64,000 bases of DNA. Source: Leptospiraceae bacterium. GTDB taxonomy: Bacteria > Spirochaetota > Leptospiria > Leptospirales > Leptonemataceae. Made by a program: the position numbers and the translations under genes. This document shows, one piece after another, positions 54,235-61,344 of the stretch. Below the pieces are notes generated by a model, which had not been told where the DNA came from, did not search any database, and saw only the letters and a program-made list of their open reading frames with translations. Position 1 is the stretch's first letter, and every line of letters begins with the position of its first letter. The stretch covers positions 384,001 through 448,000 of the forward strand of contig JAVJNR010000004.1 in assembly GCA_040217195.1 (NCBI GenBank), written 5' to 3'.

Positions 54235-54666
54235 CTAACGCTTAATCTCGTAGATCAGCGAACCTTTCTCCTTTTTACCATCCAGAGTACATTCAATAAA
54301 AAGGTTGAGTCTTCGCGTAGTGGAAGGAACATCAATCGAGCCAGAATACCCGTCACCTTTTTTGCTCAGGACTACGGGCTTCTTTCCTGCCCCGGGTATC
54401 TGGTATTCCAGCGAAACACCGGTTGCATCTTCAGCCACATGTTTTACATCTTTCTCCAGGATATATACCATCACCTGATTTCCAGTTATGACCGCTTCAC
54501 CGTAATGATGCGTTAACCTGGTATATTCACCACCATGAGGGCCCACCGGCGGCATTTGCCCTGGTGCTTCATGCCCTTCTTCATGGGCTGCCACAGAAAC
54601 AAAAGATAGTGTGAGTGCCGCCAAAATGGCCAGCTTCCATCTATTTCTATTCTTAACTCGTTTCAT
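54235..54666 (-). CDS. Periplasmic putative metal-binding protein (GPHGG motif)
   Basis: Signal peptide, AHEEGH...GPHGG...HH; SD AAGGAG; last gene of the RND operon. Confidence 0.7.
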   Translation of the reverse strand: MKRVKNRNRWKLAILAALTLSFVSVAAHEEGHEAPGQMPPVGPHGGEYTRLTHHYGEAVITGNQVMVYILEKDVKHVAEDATGVSLEYQIPGAGKKPVVLSKKGDGYSGSIDVPSTTRRLNLFIECTLDGKKEKGSLIYEIKR

Positions 54667-54730
54667 CTAATTCTCCTTCTATATTTGATTCTAAATCTAT
54701 TCGTTTGGTTCAATATGATTCCCTGAATTC

Positions 54731-56179
54731 CTACTCTTCAATGTCCCCATTTACTTCTTCATCCGAATTCTGAACCTCTTTTTCATCCTGATCTGTAACT
54801 TGCAAATCTTGAGTATAGGAACGTAGGAGATGTACTTCTAGAAGTAGCAACTGCCATTCAAATAGTCTTTCAACTTCTTGCATCTGAAGCTCCCCGAATG
54901 TATCGATTGAAGCGATCATGTCTGCAGGGCTTTTCTGGCCGTTTCGAAAATCTCCATACGCAATATTCACTGCTCGACGAGCCTGGGCTATCAACTGGCT
55001 CAGAGATCTGATACGGCTCCTGTGGCGATCCATGGCTGCATTCTTTTCATGAATGGAGCTCTTCAATCCCAGCAAGGCCTGCTCCCATTCCAGACGCCGA
55101 GCCTCAATTCGGCCCTTTCTGGCTTTCAGTGCAGAACTGCGATCCCCGGAACCGAATACAGGTATCCTGAAGCGAATCTGGGCCCCGGCCTCCGGTTTTT
55201 CCGGAGTGATCGCATCCAGTGCAGGGCCGTAGCCCCCATAGAGGCGAAGCGAAAGGTCCATACCGTAGATTTCCTTCCGGGCCAGTTCTTCCTCTTCCTG
55301 GAAGTATCGATTGGCCAGATTAAATCCAGAAAATAGAGGATGCTCTTCCAGGGATACGTAGCTGGCCTCATTGCCATTCACAGGATTGGAAAATCTTAAC
55401 GGGACCGGCTCCGGCACTGAGTCCTCCTGGGATAATCCAGCCTGTAACCTAAGCTGTTCGCGCAGGGAGCCCATGGCCGTGATAATGTCCTGAATTTCGG
55501 AGCGAAGATCGGCCCGTCGAATGCGTACGTTCACTAGATCTGAGTAGGAAGCTGTCCCAATTCTAAGACGGGGGCCCAGTAACGCTTCCAGCTGTCCGTA
55601 TTCTCGCAGAAGACTCCGTCGCACTTCCAGGGTGCTTTCAAGTCTGCATATCCGTAAATAGAGAAGACCCAGGCTTTTTCCCTGGTCCACTTTTCTCATT
55701 ATCGACTGGACCTGTATGCGTTTTTCATTCAGTCGCGTAAGCTTTGCTCGACTTTCTCGCTTCCCTCCATCCCAGAGAGTCCAGTCAGCCACCAGTCGGG
55801 CCAGTGGCCCCGTTCTGCTTTCCTGGGCATTGGCTGCCCCTCCATAGCCTGCCTCCCCGTAAATGTCGGGTAGATACCAAACAGGCAGGGATTCCAGCTC
55901 ATCTTCCGCGGCCTGAATCTGCACGGGAGCGATTCGCATGCCGGGAGAGTTCTTCAAAGCCTTCTGAAAATACAGCGACAATCCTCTGGATAGACTGGTT
56001 TCCGATTTCGTCTCGTGCGACGGCCGAATTTCCTCCGAGCCAGGAGCTGGACTTGCAGGAAGAAGCACTAGAAATAGCACCAATACTTGAAGTGTATTCT
56101 TCCAGGCTCGGATGGCCTCCGGAAAGGACTCGGTTTGGTGCAATTCCACCGGACAACTGCTTTTAAACGTCGGATTCAT
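54731..56179 (-). CDS. TolC/CzcC family outer-membrane efflux protein
   Basis: ALKNSP, YLPDI, WTLWDGG, FRIPVF; follows the RND gene; SD GGAGG before ATG 56179. Confidence 0.85.
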   Translation of the reverse strand: MNPTFKSSCPVELHQTESFPEAIRAWKNTLQVLVLFLVLLPASPAPGSEEIRPSHETKSETSLSRGLSLYFQKALKNSPGMRIAPVQIQAAEDELESLPVWYLPDIYGEAGYGGAANAQESRTGPLARLVADWTLWDGGKRESRAKLTRLNEKRIQVQSIMRKVDQGKSLGLLYLRICRLESTLEVRRSLLREYGQLEALLGPRLRIGTASYSDLVNVRIRRADLRSEIQDIITAMGSLREQLRLQAGLSQEDSVPEPVPLRFSNPVNGNEASYVSLEEHPLFSGFNLANRYFQEEEELARKEIYGMDLSLRLYGGYGPALDAITPEKPEAGAQIRFRIPVFGSGDRSSALKARKGRIEARRLEWEQALLGLKSSIHEKNAAMDRHRSRIRSLSQLIAQARRAVNIAYGDFRNGQKSPADMIASIDTFGELQMQEVERLFEWQLLLLEVHLLRSYTQDLQVTDQDEKEVQNSDEEVNGDIEE

Positions 56180-59100
56180 TGGTCTGCCTCCCTGCCAGCG
56201 GATGAAAGCGTTGGCCAATCTGAAAATAGAGTACCGGAGTAATCAGAATATCCAGAGCTGTTGAGGTAATCAGACCTCCGGTTATGACAATCGCCACAGG
56301 AAACAGGATCTCCTTGCCGGCCGCATCTGGACCGGTTAACAAAACCGGAGCCAATGCCAGTATTGCTGTACCTGCTGTCATGAGCATGGGAACCAGCCTT
56401 TCAAGGGCACCGCGAAGGATCATTTCCTCTGTCAGATCTTCTCCTTCCTGTACCATCAAATGTTCAAAGTGCGAAAGCATCAGAATTCCATTTCGTGCCG
56501 CAATACCGGTGAGAGCTACGAAGCCAACCATGCTGGCAAGTGTGAGACTAGATCCAGTAATTAGCAGTGCTAGCAAGCCGCCCACCGCAGCCACCGGCAG
56601 ATTAAGCAGGATTTGAGCTGTTAGAATCCATGAACGGAAATGGGCATATACGATCAGAGAAATCAGAATCAAGGAGGCAAGCGCCAGAAGCAAAAGACGT
56701 CGGCTGGACTCCTGCGCTACTGTATACCGTCCCGCCAGTTCATATCTGGCATTACTCCAATCCATGGATTCAAGCTCCTGCTCCGTCTGTGCCACCACAT
56801 CTTCCAGGGGACGGTCCTGAACATTGAATTGGACTACCATGGCTCGTTCTCCCTGCTCCCGGGGAATCTCATAGGGTCCGCTGGAGGTATACACATCCGC
56901 CACCTGTTCCAGACGAACGGCCGATCCATCCGGTCTATGTCTGAGGGTGATTCTCTTTAGGGCCTCTGCTTCCAGGTCCGACTCTTCCAATCGAATCCGC
57001 ACCGGAAAAAATTTCTCTTCCTCTCGCACGGTTCCCACCTGGCGGCCCAGCTGAGCGATCTGTAGAGTCTCGATAATGTCTGGCGCTGCCATTCCATTCT
57101 GTCCGGCTTTTGCATGCTGAATGATAGTTTTCAGTTCCGGTGCCATACTCATGGCTTCGGCCCTTACATCCACAGCGCCAGGGATGGTCTTGATCAATTC
57201 ATTAACCTGATAGGTACGGTACTGTAGCGAACGAAGATCTGTGGCAAAGACTCGCACTGCAAGCTGGGATCGAATACCAGAAAGTAAATGGTCCAGTCGA
57301 TGGGAGATCGGCTGTCCGAATCCTACGTTAATTCCCTCGATCTCTTCAAATTGCTTTCGTAACTCGGATTCCAGTGCATGCCGACTTTCTCCTGATAAAC
57401 CAGGTTTTAATCCAACATCGAATTCGCTATAATGCACCCCTTCTGCATGCTCATCCCCTTCTGCCCGTCCAGTGCGACGTGCAAAATGAGTTATCTCATC
57501 GTACCGTGATAGAACGGCCTCAATCTTCATTGCTTTTTCGGCAGAGGCACGAAGTGAGTTTCCGGGAGTGGAAATAACTTCCAGAGTCATGGTTCCTTCA
57601 TTGAATTCCGGCAGAAAATTCAATGGAAGAATCAAAAAAGCAATCAGTCCGGCACCCAGCATCACAGATGCGAAGAGAAAGGAGACCCCGGGCCGGCTTA
57701 AAAGTTTCTTAAGGTTGCTTTGCTGCCAGGATTTTAGCCTTCGAACCAGCATGCTTTCTTTTTGTGCGAATTTATATTTGCCCAGAAGTAAATAGGCGAG
57801 CACCGGAGTTACAGTCAAAGCAACAACCAGAGAAGCGGCGATGGCTACAATGTATGCAATTACCAGCGGTTGAAAGAGCCTTCCCTCCACTCCTTCCATA
57901 AATAGAAACGGGATAAAAACCAGGATGACCGTTGCAGTCGCCAGCACTATGCTGTTTCGAATCTCCGAGCTGGCATTATAAATCACACCGAGCGAAGATT
58001 CCGGAGATCCTGCCGCTTGATTTTCCCGCAACCGGCGAAAGCAGTTCTCCACGTCCACCACGGCATCGTCCACCAGCTCACCAATGGCCACCGCAAGACC
58101 GCCCAGAGTCATGGTATTAATTTGCAAACCCAGGAATTGAAGAAGCAGCACAGCGCTCAATAGAGAAAGAGGCAGTGCCAGTACTGTGATAATCGTGGTG
58201 CGAACATTCCATAGAAACAGGATCAAAATCAGTATCACTATGATGGAGCCGTCCCGGATTGCTTCGGATACATTTTCTATAGCAGTTTCTATAAAGCCGG
58301 CCTGCAGAAATAGCTCCGGATGGATCTGGATCTCTCCTTCAACATCCTTCTGTAGATCGTTGAGTTCCTCCTGGATTGCACGAGTCAGATCCAGAGTCGA
58401 CGCCCCAGGCTGCTTCTGAACTGCAATGATGACACCCTGCTGGCCGGAAATCCCGGCATCCCCTCTAGGTGGCAGATGGCCTGACTTTACAGTGGCCACG
58501 TCCTTAAGTTGTACTGGCCGACCGGCTTTGAATCCGATCAGGGCACTTGCAATTTCATCGGCGGAGAAGATCTCTGCCTGATTGCGAAATGCTACCTGCT
58601 CATCCTCCTTTTCGAAGAATCCTCCGCCAGAAACTTCACCCACTGGATCCAGTCTGCGGGACACTTCAATGAGAGAAAGATTGGATCGCGTCAGACGATC
58701 TTCATTTACCAGTATATCATATGTGCGAGCTTCGCCACCCAGGGCTGTCACAGAAGAAACGCCGGGAATGGCCAGTAGCCTTTTTCGCACATCCCAGTCT
58801 GCAAACGTTCGCAGGGTAGCCAGATCTGCTTGCGATTCCGGAGCAGCGGTCAGCCCGATGAGCATGATTTCGCCCATTACGGAACTGATGGGCCCCAGAT
58901 GCACCTCCACATCGCCGGACAATTCCAACCGGGCCCCGTCCAGCTTTTCATTTACAATCTGCCTGGCCCGGTATATATCCATATCCCAGGGAAATTCCAG
59001 ACGGATCTTCGCTACTCCTCGACGACTGGAACTTCGAATTCCCTCCACTCCAGGGGCACCCATCAGGGCTCGTTCCAGGGGAAGGACAACCTTTCGCTCC

Positions 59101-59324
59101 AGATCCTCGGCCGCCATGCCGGGAGCTTCCACGAGCACGGTGACGACCGGACGATTCAAATCAGGAAATACGTCGATAGAAAGTTCACTGCTACGAATCA
59201 ATCCCGCAGCCAGAACAAGTAATGCAAGCACCAGAACCGTACCTCGGTTCTTTAATGACATTTTGATAATGCGGTCCAGTAGCCCCGGAGCGGAGCCGCT
59301 ATGCGCCTGATAATTTTTTTTCAA
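56163..59324 (-). CDS. CusA/CzcA family heavy-metal RND efflux permease
   Basis: IDVFPDL, GLAVAIGELVDDAVVDVEN, FLPEFNEG, GIAARNG, ERLVPMLMT; TTG 59324 has SD GAGGAGG 5 nt upstream. Confidence 0.93.
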   Translation of the reverse strand: MKKNYQAHSGSAPGLLDRIIKMSLKNRGTVLVLALLVLAAGLIRSSELSIDVFPDLNRPVVTVLVEAPGMAAEDLERKVVLPLERALMGAPGVEGIRSSSRRGVAKIRLEFPWDMDIYRARQIVNEKLDGARLELSGDVEVHLGPISSVMGEIMLIGLTAAPESQADLATLRTFADWDVRKRLLAIPGVSSVTALGGEARTYDILVNEDRLTRSNLSLIEVSRRLDPVGEVSGGGFFEKEDEQVAFRNQAEIFSADEIASALIGFKAGRPVQLKDVATVKSGHLPPRGDAGISGQQGVIIAVQKQPGASTLDLTRAIQEELNDLQKDVEGEIQIHPELFLQAGFIETAIENVSEAIRDGSIIVILILILFLWNVRTTIITVLALPLSLLSAVLLLQFLGLQINTMTLGGLAVAIGELVDDAVVDVENCFRRLRENQAAGSPESSLGVIYNASSEIRNSIVLATATVILVFIPFLFMEGVEGRLFQPLVIAYIVAIAASLVVALTVTPVLAYLLLGKYKFAQKESMLVRRLKSWQQSNLKKLLSRPGVSFLFASVMLGAGLIAFLILPLNFLPEFNEGTMTLEVISTPGNSLRASAEKAMKIEAVLSRYDEITHFARRTGRAEGDEHAEGVHYSEFDVGLKPGLSGESRHALESELRKQFEEIEGINVGFGQPISHRLDHLLSGIRSQLAVRVFATDLRSLQYRTYQVNELIKTIPGAVDVRAEAMSMAPELKTIIQHAKAGQNGMAAPDIIETLQIAQLGRQVGTVREEEKFFPVRIRLEESDLEAEALKRITLRHRPDGSAVRLEQVADVYTSSGPYEIPREQGERAMVVQFNVQDRPLEDVVAQTEQELESMDWSNARYELAGRYTVAQESSRRLLLLALASLILISLIVYAHFRSWILTAQILLNLPVAAVGGLLALLITGSSLTLASMVGFVALTGIAARNGILMLSHFEHLMVQEGEDLTEEMILRGALERLVPMLMTAGTAILALAPVLLTGPDAAGKEILFPVAIVITGGLITSTALDILITPVLYFQIGQRFHPLAGRQTNESDV

Positions 59325-59329
59325 TGATT

Positions 59330-59399
59330 CCTCCTCGTTACATGCAATGAGAGACCGGGCCATTGAAAGGCTCGGTTCAGGACTCTAGCAACGAGGAGG
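59330..59399 (-). promoter_or_regulatory. SD-sequestering mRNA hairpin linking the leader ORF to the RND gene
   Basis: mRNA CCUCCUCGUUGC (59399-59388) pairs with GUAACGAGGAGG (59341-59330); inner stem ACCGAGCC/GGCCCGGU. Confidence 0.75.
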
Positions 59400-59948
59400 C
59401 GGAATTCGAAACGGAATGAGGCCGGAAGCAATATCCGAAGGAGAAAAGCCACGGGTCAAAAATCGATTCGGAGGCCGCGAAATTAATTCTCCGGATCCAG
59501 GATCCAGTGGGTGGTAAGATAGGAGACCGAAATGGGACGGAATCTTTATTCGAAAATCCGCTTCCTGGAATGCTGGCAAAGCATCCTGCTCGAACAATGT
59601 GAAGAAAGTAAAAAAGGGAATAGACCCATGGTCTGCTGGTCCAGCGTTCTGCCCGGGCACCGGCTCAATAGCAGCATCGCATCCTGCTTTCCAGGAATTG
59701 GCCACAGGAGCAGTCCGATCCGAGGATCTCTTTACGGCATGGTGACCATGGCTGTGCTCCGTATGCGAATGTAGGTGTGCCGAATGTCCCCTGGATGATG
59801 CAAATTTTTCCAGAATCCCATCATGGAAATGAACATAGCTTCCCTGCAACCCCTCATGGGAATGTTGACCCAGCACCGGGCCGCTCAGCTGAAGTAACAA
59901 TCCCTGAATAAGCAGGACTGCAGCAACTATGTGGATTCTAGATCTCAT
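59385..59948 (-). CDS. Secreted His-rich leader protein ending in RIPPPRC; candidate RAPP-like arrest peptide
   Basis: Hydrophobic signal, HSH/HFH/HSAHLHSHTEHSHGHH, C-terminal FRIPPPRC; directly upstream of the RND gene. Confidence 0.7.
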   Translation of the reverse strand: MRSRIHIVAAVLLIQGLLLQLSGPVLGQHSHEGLQGSYVHFHDGILEKFASSRGHSAHLHSHTEHSHGHHAVKRSSDRTAPVANSWKAGCDAAIEPVPGQNAGPADHGSIPFFTFFTLFEQDALPAFQEADFRIKIPSHFGLLSYHPLDPGSGELISRPPNRFLTRGFSPSDIASGLIPFRIPPPRC

Positions 59949-60009
59949 TTGGATTCAGAACTAAGAAAATTTCTCCAGGACGTTGAGCGGTTTCACAGAT
60001 CGTTTTAAT

Positions 60010-60042
60010 GCTCCGATAGAACCGTCGGCCCTCTATCGGAGC
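60010..60042. terminator. Inverted repeat after gltA (terminator or operator)
   Basis: GCTCCGATAGA-11 nt-TCTATCGGAGC perfect 11-bp arms; no U-tract on the minus strand. Confidence 0.5.
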
Positions 60043-60054
60043 GCCGGGAAAGAA

Positions 60055-61344
60055 TTAGCCCCGGTTTTCCATGGGCACATAGGTTCTTCGCGCTGGACCG
60101 GTATAGATCTGACGCGGACGGCCAATCTTGCTACCTGGATCCTCAATCATTTCCTTCCATTGAGCAATCCAGCCTGGCATTCTACCCAGAGCAAACATTA
60201 CTGTGAACATCTCTGTGGGAATGCCCATCGCTCGATAAATCAGACCAGAGTAAAAGTCCACATTGGGATACAGTTTTCTTTCTGCGAAATAGGGATCGCT
60301 TAGAGCTGTTTCTTCAAGTTTGATTGCGATTTCCAGATACGGATCATGCACTCCTAGCTGATTGAGTACTTCATCCGCAGCCTTCTTGATAATTCTGGCC
60401 CTTGGATCAAAGTTCTTATAAACTCGGTGACCAAATCCCATGAGTCGGAATGTAGAATTCTTGTCTTTTGCCAGGTTGATAAACTTGGCCACATCTCCAC
60501 CATCCTCATGGATGGTCTGCAGCATTTCGATTACTTTCTGATTGGCTCCTCCATGCAATGGCCCCCAGAGTGCGCAGACTCCGCTGGACATGGTGGCAAA
60601 GATATTGGCCCGGCTGGAACCTACCAGACGTACCGTGGAAGCAGAACAGTTCTGCTCATGGTCCGCATGCAGAATAAGCAGCATATCCAGAGCTTTCTCA
60701 ATGACTGGATTTACATGATAATCCTCGGCAGGAACCGAAAACATCATGTTTAGAAAGTTGGCCACATAACTTAAAGAGTTCCGCGGATAAATAAAGGGCT
60801 GCCCTATGGATTTTTTGAATGAATAGGCAGCAATGGTGGGCGTTTTGGCCAGCAGCCGAATAATGGAAATCTCTCGGTGACGAGGATTCAAAGGATCTGA
60901 AGAATCCGTATAATAACCGGATAGAGTGCAGATCATAGAGCTCAGGATGGCCATGGGATGGGAATCCTTGGGAAAGCCATCATAGAGCCTCTTCAGATCT
61001 TCATGGATCATAGTATGTCTTGTGACATTAAAAACGAAGTCGTCAAATTGCTCTTTGGTGGGAAGCTCACCGTATATTAGAAGATAGGACACTTCCAGGA
61101 AGCTGGATTTTTCTGCGAGCTCCTCTATGGAGTAACCTCTGTAATGGAGAACTCCTGCCTCTCCGTCGATGAATGTAATCTTACTCTGGCAGGACCCGGT
61201 ATTTAAGAAAGCCTCATCCATGGTGATGGCTCCGGTGGTGCCCCGCAATTTAGATATATCTATTGCTTTTTCATTTTCCGTTCCGGTAATAACCGGCACT
61301 TCCAGTTCCTGACCATCGTACAAAATCTTAGCTGTTTCTGACAT
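60055..61344 (-). CDS. gltA: Citrate synthase (type II)
   Basis: LHADHEQN, GPLHGGAN, GFGHRVY, PNVDF, RPRQ; start at MSETAK. Confidence 0.97.
   Translation of the reverse strand: MSETAKILYDGQELEVPVITGTENEKAIDISKLRGTTGAITMDEAFLNTGSCQSKITFIDGEAGVLHYRGYSIEELAEKSSFLEVSYLLIYGELPTKEQFDDFVFNVTRHTMIHEDLKRLYDGFPKDSHPMAILSSMICTLSGYYTDSSDPLNPRHREISIIRLLAKTPTIAAYSFKKSIGQPFIYPRNSLSYVANFLNMMFSVPAEDYHVNPVIEKALDMLLILHADHEQNCSASTVRLVGSSRANIFATMSSGVCALWGPLHGGANQKVIEMLQTIHEDGGDVAKFINLAKDKNSTFRLMGFGHRVYKNFDPRARIIKKAADEVLNQLGVHDPYLEIAIKLEETALSDPYFAERKLYPNVDFYSGLIYRAMGIPTEMFTVMFALGRMPGWIAQWKEMIEDPGSKIGRPRQIYTGPARRTYVPMENRG

Follow-up and report, generated by a model that had tools for sequence, protein, structure and literature searches.

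A histidine-rich leader ahead of a heavy-metal RND pump in a Leptospiraceae bacterium: a probable metal-responsive ribosome-stalling switch of a known type

The window (64,000 nucleotides of Leptospiraceae bacterium contig JAVJNR010000004.1) harbours on its minus strand a leader open reading frame (ORF) followed by genes for an RND permease, an outer membrane efflux protein and a small His-containing protein (Table 1). The leader ORF (59948-59385) encodes 187 amino acids and ends in FRIPPPRC-stop, as the original prediction had described; 16 of its residues are His. Its putative signal region has a hydrophobic N-terminus (judged by eye), as does the whole family, and a predicted helix at residues 2-21. 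In the AlphaFold model, this helix and the hairpin of strands 28-33 and 36-41 are confident, and the remainder is of low confidence (mean pLDDT 59.9). The most conserved His residues are the four on this N-terminal beta-hairpin (H29, H31, H40 and H42), above those of the variable poly-His tract; by the strand register of the model, the four would share one face.

Table 1. Features of the leader, the helix over the RND start site and the neighbouring genes (positions in the window).
Feature	Position	Strand	Basis
Leader ORF, 187 aa, His-rich, putatively exported, ends RIPPPRC-stop	59385..59948	-	no Pfam/NCBIfam match; 22 profile matches
Putative Sec signal peptide, residues 1-27	59868..59948	-	sequence; helix 2-21 pLDDT about 87-91; cleavage site inferred
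Conserved HxH...HxH beta-hairpin (H29, H31, H40, H42), putative periplasmic metal site	59823..59867	-	conservation in 24 rows; strands 28-33, 36-41
Variable poly-His tract, residues 55-70	59739..59786	-	low-confidence/unstructured in AlphaFold model
R-I-P-P-P codons 181-185, putative stall site	59394..59408	-	RxPP in 9/9 RND-selected loci; R181, P183, P184 invariant
Anti-SD arm, last four sense codons of leader (codons 184-187)	59388..59399	-	fold, pairing
Enclosed region, 46 nt, stop codon and inner stems	59342..59387	-	sequence poorly conserved; inner stems in 9/9 predicted folds
SD arm containing GAGGAGG	59330..59341	-	pairing, SD energy
CusA/CzcA-like heavy-metal RND permease, 1053 aa from TTG	56163..59324	-	TIGR00914; best PDB matches ZneA, CusA
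Outer membrane efflux protein (OEP/TolC family), start only approximate	54731..56218	-	PF02321 E 2e-27
143-aa exported His-containing protein	54235..54666	-	no Pfam match; accompanies cassette
11-bp GC-rich inverted repeat 3' of citrate synthase stop	60010..60042	-	no U-tract; region z -1.72

TIGR00914 was the best family for the RND protein, with a score (652.4 bits) under its curated cut-off (701.45). The closest solved relatives were ZneA and CusA, with ZneA scoring about equally. When the protein was aligned to CusA, E, Y and H occupied what we take to be the positions of the three CusA Met ligands, which suggests a divalent-metal rather than a Cu(I) pump. No membrane-fusion (CzcB-like) gene was recognised beside RND in the window (54235-59324) or in L062-L067; three CzcB-like matches were present elsewhere in the genome, all below cut-off. 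The 143-aa His protein was found in 11 of 156 Leptospirales genomes, including all nine RND-bearing ones. By eye, this small exported protein resembles the N-terminus of the fusion proteins encoded upstream of distant RND homologues. In three congeneric genomes (G002, G004 and G005, 92-94% complete), citrate synthase was followed by glycerate kinase-matching DNA without the cassette (read from gene maps in two of them, and in G004 from BLAST matches alone), indicating a patchy distribution in which the whole cassette comes or goes together. The inverted repeat 3' of citrate synthase was not called in the terminator scan; it is a possible terminator that would insulate the cassette from gltA. 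EF-P is encoded in the host genome.

The RND start was placed at TTG 59324, in frame with RND, and GAGGAGG ends 5 nt upstream of it. Using an anti-SD motif that we assumed, the best pairing energy was obtained for this TTG (-11.8), and an independent start-picking rule also selected it. Two alternative starts, ATG 59363 and ATG 59261, were discarded, as their SD energies were weak (-2.2 and -3.0 respectively) and both positions lack an ATG in the congener. In five relatives (L003, L045, L047, L048 and L049) there are in-frame stops just upstream of the RND start. The last codons of the leader, CCT CCT CGT TGC (59399-59388), pair with GTAACGAGGAGG (59341-59330) over 12 bp (10 Watson-Crick pairs, then G-U and C-G). 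Both the pairing and the position of the Shine-Dalgarno (SD) sequence agree with the original prediction. The fold of 59300-59420 reached -36.7 kcal/mol (z -3.36), and one of 200 shuffles was equally stable. Rfam gave no match at E<=1 over 59200-60150. A single sigma-70-like site in the leader (59459-59430, 9/12, chance expectation 1.1) was not accepted as evidence of an internal promoter.

The leader matched no Pfam family at E<=1 and no NCBIfam family. None of 11 leader-family members matched DUF2946 (PF11162) at E<=5, and no Pfam family describes these members. A single-sequence homologue search retrieved only the leader itself and P0002 (of 59 candidates), a word-indexed profile search gave 4 of 1842, and in the Atlas structure search every TM by query was <=0.32, with no lead. 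The Atlas feature look-alikes were Planctomycetota hypotheticals (0.96), DUF6769 (0.93) and CzcI (0.92). A profile built from the 11 leaders had 22 matches among 1.84 billion representatives. The RxPP C-terminus was present in 21/21 members examined (P0001, P0002 and 19 more; the 544-aa P0022 was excluded), a count that is partly circular because the motif is part of the profile; P0013 and P0020 matched the profile without its C-terminal part.

Conservation was analysed in an alignment of 24 rows (P0001-P0019 and five locus translations, with P0020-P0022 excluded). At a mean identity of 19%, H29, H31, H42, R181, P183 and P184 were invariant and H40 nearly so. The x residue of RxPP was A in 11 rows, P in 8, G in 2, T in 2 and I in 1 (A/G/P in 21/24), and 13 of the 24 members carry RAPP or RGPP motifs. 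In 11/24 members the Arg is preceded, at a distance of 18-20 residues, by an (I/V)R(D/E)G word, a fixed spacing within tunnel range; the word is absent from the host's genus. CxxC is absent from the leader and present in one of the 24 members. The relatives are 133-203 aa long, and in the 22 usable rows (of 24) the His motif and the Arg are 98-168 residues apart. Searched with the profile of this alignment, 11 of the 156 Leptospirales genomes had a leader: the nine RND-bearing ones, G024 (ending RPPA, ahead of a frameshifted RND) and G062 (ending HIPPP, ahead of an apparent outer membrane factor gene). The orthologous RND is split into two ORFs in G017 (L066:4999-8175) and heavily frameshifted in G024 (L077), with the leader still present in both cases; these broken genes may reflect assembly error or decay.

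Loci were also selected by RND alone (first 308 residues, E<=1e-48) in the 156 Leptospirales genomes, without using the leader. RND was present in nine genomes, the host's own included, from only four genera. In all nine loci (L002 and L031 are identical in sequence and were counted once), RND is preceded by an ORF whose product has HxH motifs, a hydrophobic N-terminus and RxPP at the C-terminus, ending in RIPPPRC, RTPPPC, RGPPLCS, RPPPHFV, RPPPAG, RAPPFTSPIV, RAPPTTPSLV, RAPPITPSLA or RAPPSAS. The terminal RxPP is thus conserved upstream of orthologous RND genes, and 9/9 is far above background, because only 19 short free-standing ORFs in the whole host genome carry RxPP in their last 14 residues (AxPP, 8; KxPP, 6). 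By contrast, the distant RND homologues outside the order (38-45% identity; L032, L033, L040, L043 and L050-L059) had no leader directly upstream; in its place there was a larger exported gene, mostly fusion-protein-like.

In the minimum-energy folds of all nine loci, the RND start region was paired with the 3' end of the leader, across spacers of 38-207 nt; the inner stems anticipated for the window locus were seen in all nine. Start codons in the relatives were picked by eye (L049 was presumed to start at CTG, and the start of L045 is uncertain). Between the host and its congener G006, eight of the 12 helix pairs were unchanged, two were compensatory and two were lost, and the enclosed region had diverged. 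Helix covariation between these two sequences was not significant (121/500 shuffles), because two sequences are too few. The SD-closing helix of the original prediction is supported by its conservation in the relatives.

Release gain was calculated as the drop in the cost of opening the ribosome-binding site (RBS) once a ribosome footprint, with limits that we assumed, was forced onto RxPP or the last codons of the leader (Table 2). The footprint eased RBS opening in eight of the nine loci (by 2.7-9.5 kcal/mol), L045 being without gain, while a control footprint 60 nt upstream changed it by about 1 kcal/mol or less. At the window locus (L001) the gain persisted, at 7.4-11.3 kcal/mol, when the end of the footprint was set 11, 13 or 16 nt away from the P site. 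Genome-wide, the leader-RND pair ranked first among 1104 same-strand ORF pairs (mean 0.17, sd 1.39; 1104 of 1318 candidate pairs run, with crude ORF calls), a rank to be read in the light of the locus having been chosen beforehand for exactly this pairing feature. As Pro codons complement an SD anyway, a synonymous null was used, in which the leader peptide was kept and its codons were redrawn. Recodings at the window locus seldom matched its occlusion, but its release gain was reached in 10/150 of them, so part of the effect comes from Pro codons complementing the SD by themselves; the mean gain in synonymous recodings was 2.7. L003 was not above its null for occlusion or release.

Table 2. 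Release gain in the RND-selected loci and synonymous recodings with an effect as large.
Locus	Release gain (kcal/mol)	Occlusion as strong	Release gain as large
L001	9.5	1/150	10/150
L002	8.9	13/150	17/150
L003	2.7	44/150	68/150
L044	6.1	1/40	1/40
L045	-0.3	2/40	22/40
L046	4.6	6/150	28/150
L047	6.0	9/150	6/150
L048	5.9	4/150	4/150
L049	3.0	4/150	4/150

Several described leaders resemble this one. In CutF, the leader of Rhodobacter capsulatus cutFOG, the C-terminus is PEPEGPPPRL, the PPP is required and its effect is relieved by EF-P, according to the accessible part of the preprint (bioRxiv 2025.02.05.636593). The PPP-R-x-stop end of the window leader mirrors this C-terminus, and a stem-loop shielding the downstream SD, a trait of the CutF mechanism, is predicted for it; the window leader has the four-His hairpin instead of CxxxC. 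A survey of 5,334 CutF-like proteins (PMC9973294, Ozturk 2023) reports, in its available text, OEP and ACR_tran (CusA/CzcA/SilA) neighbours, two His-only clusters (14 and 17) sited before HupE/UreJ, and scarce Spirochaetota members. The earlier claim that such a leader was new to spirochaetes, or new in having a poly-His sensor, is therefore weakened. Three supplementary text files of this paper contain no spirochaete terms, and shorter members of the leader family may already be in its protein lists (File S1). Like the surveyed set, the window leader has PP in its last 15 residues and a same-strand metal gene within 1000 nt (60 nt to RND); unlike it, it is longer (187 aa) than the <150 aa filter, and it precedes an RND without the CusA Met triad, whereas the His-only clusters precede HupE/UreJ.

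CruR of Bordetella pertussis (Bp2923, DUF2946/PF11162) is defined by CxxC and RAPP at a fixed spacing of about 45 residues and controls an importer through Rho, with metal relieving the arrest (PMC9426467, available text). An exported-type upstream ORF, a C-terminal RxPP and a position at the head of a metal-homeostasis operon are common to both leaders; the window leader differs in having no CxxC or DUF2946 match, a variable spacing, an exporter as target and an anti-SD helix. ApdA, ApdP and SLIV are likewise small secreted proteins with Arg-x-Pro-Pro near the C-terminus. In the ApdA/ApdP scans, as given in the available text of PMC12992588, the Ala of RAPP was fully replaced by G and partly by S, D, P, V or E. 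The window leader has Ile at this position (Thr in its closest relatives), outside the permissive set, and strong arrest of the RAPP type is therefore unlikely for RIPP; the original likening of RIPPP to RAPP/RGPP motifs is borne out by the conserved RxPP but not by the Ile. The same paper describes RAPP/RGPP leaders before many metal genes, the words RND and efflux being absent from its main text, and predicts His/Cys metal sites for two Streptomyces SLIV peptides. CzcI (PF28244) and DUF6769 are also small exported proteins, and CzcI precedes the czcCBA divalent-metal RND; in the Pfam scan the leader matched neither. In a literature search covering few subscription papers, no paper was found that deals with the leader family or tests a His-type leader ahead of an RND pump. 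What is new is an unnamed leader family with a four-His beta-hairpin; as the class was already predicted in print (PMC9973294, available text), the gain is a new family with comparative support, not a new principle.

The leader is probably a CutF-like cis-acting arrest leader that switches on the RND pump, at the head of a four-gene heavy-metal efflux cassette; it would be CutF-like in its working and not a DUF2946 member, the model of that family being unmatched. Among the points against this reading, the leader ATG has no SD, and the host genus, with Ile or Thr in RxPP and no IRDG word, has the least typical arrest motif of the family. Its leaders do have a third Pro, and by analogy with CutF the window leader is more likely to pause on PPP than as a RAPP-type motif. 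The leader would be exported during translation; as some 150 residues separate the His hairpin from the stall site, the hairpin would be outside the membrane before the ribosome reached RIPPP. Without metal, pulling and EF-P would clear the prolines, the helix would re-form and the pump would stay low. In the periplasm, a divalent metal (more likely Zn, Co, Ni or Cd than Cu(I)) would bind the hairpin and lengthen the pause, and the prolonged pause would keep the SD open so that the pump is made. The direction of this control, pump on with metal, is taken from CutF. More tentatively, the Cys-free Leptospirales leaders as a family may sense divalent metal through the four-His hairpin and control an adaptor-less RND, with RAPP/RGPP/RPPP forms (often with IRDG) and EF-P-sensitive RxPPP forms linking CruR-type and CutF-type arrest.

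The folding results are also what plain translational coupling would give, with any passing or terminating ribosome opening the helix, the Pro tail acting at most as a constitutive pause, and metal control, if any, being transcriptional. A terminating-ribosome footprint gave a gain of 6.9-8.8 kcal/mol at the window locus, near the stalled value, and opened the RBS about equally in all loci. Folding therefore reveals a coupling device, not a stall, and cannot tell stalling from ordinary termination-coupled opening; the proposal that a ribosome at RIPPP frees the SD holds for the computed opening, but not as something particular to a stalled ribosome. The gain obtained from Pro codons alone in the recodings and the absence of RIPP among the tested arrest motifs point the same way. 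We nevertheless consider plain coupling rather improbable, since it leaves unexplained why Arg-x-Pro-Pro is invariant and mostly has A, G or P at x, why the IRDG word keeps a fixed distance and why the His residues are retained at such low overall identity, and since the anti-SD arm lies mostly 3' of the Pro codons in L044 and L046-L049.

The RAPP or RGPP of most relatives, the motif of CruR and EF-P-refractory according to the available text of PMC12992588, and the spacers of 154 and 207 nt in two relatives (162 nt in CruR) would suit a CruR-type control, in which stalling is the default and shields the transcript from Rho, and metal relieves it, giving termination control or the opposite direction. 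This is unlikely at an exporter, where metal-off logic is not expected, and the window locus resembles cutFO in that an anti-SD helix closes its spacer, here of 60 nt; the distance between His motif and Arg also varies widely, against the fixed CxxC-RAPP spacing of CruR. Alternatively, the leader might chiefly be a secreted protein that binds or buffers metal in trans, its arrest motif being a decayed relic in the host genus. The 16 His with their long tract and the atypical RIPP without IRDG are consistent with this, and CzcI, a similar-looking leader that in Cupriavidus has no C-terminal proline motif (PMC9973294, available text), is a close feature look-alike. Such a role is quite unlikely, as GLIPFR-x-PPP is kept with synonymous changes between the leaders of G000 and G006, whose middles are about 35% identical, the helix has compensatory changes and the model assigns low confidence to most of the chain.

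In the literature consulted, such control has been tested only for the copper-sensing leaders CutF and CruR. A His-only leader combined with a divalent-metal-type RND and a conserved SD helix offers a clean test of whether exported nascent peptides sense Zn, Co or Ni, and the motif variants (RAPP, RGPP, RPPP and RI/TPPP, with or without IRDG) are ready comparisons for the tuning of arrest strength and EF-P sensitivity. If the more tentative reading of the whole Leptospirales family is true, neither an RND pump nor a response to a metal other than copper would, within the literature searched, have had a tested arrest-peptide control before.

Further leader-like ORFs were seen in the host and its relatives. 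Additional copies of the His-hairpin RAPP family are present at L064:4211-4621 (G044) and in L073 and L085 (G045); the L064 and L085 copies sit within a metal island, upstream of a small protein, a YtkA-like protein and a P-type-ATPase-like gene, and the L085 copy extends beyond the usual stop. In L018, L019 and L020 (genomes G033, G039 and G037 respectively, of the sister family; about 1100-1427), a 108-aa ORF with a hydrophobic N-terminus and the end YLPPP(I/T)LA lies just 5' of a czcA-like gene; it has no Arg, one His and weak SD pairing. The second-ranked release gain (8.9 kcal/mol) was that of G000:C10:275780-276217 (-), where the end of a 145-aa ORF without RxPP pairs with the RBS of a regulator-like gene. 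Two exported leaders of G000 contain CPVC. One (G000:C1:690654-691103, L068:6655-7104, -; 149 aa) ends in ARDPPSWRFA, 65 nt upstream of the gene for a protein of 424 aa that is rich in Cys, His and Met and has a MetA-pathway barrel match. The other (G000:C5:175953-176426, L069:5954-6427, -; 157 aa, no Pfam match) ends in PRPPPFRQG, 265 nt upstream of MbnP (PF20243) and a di-haem peroxidase (PF03150), and is a CruR-like leader on a probable copper-uptake operon. At G000:C6:99348-99806 (L070:849-1307), a 152-aa exported ORF whose product ends in SHAPPAA heads an operon of OEP, a short His protein and a CzcA-like gene. The SD of the OEP gene is covered by a hairpin, and the locus makes a second leader-pump pair, in which His replaces Arg.
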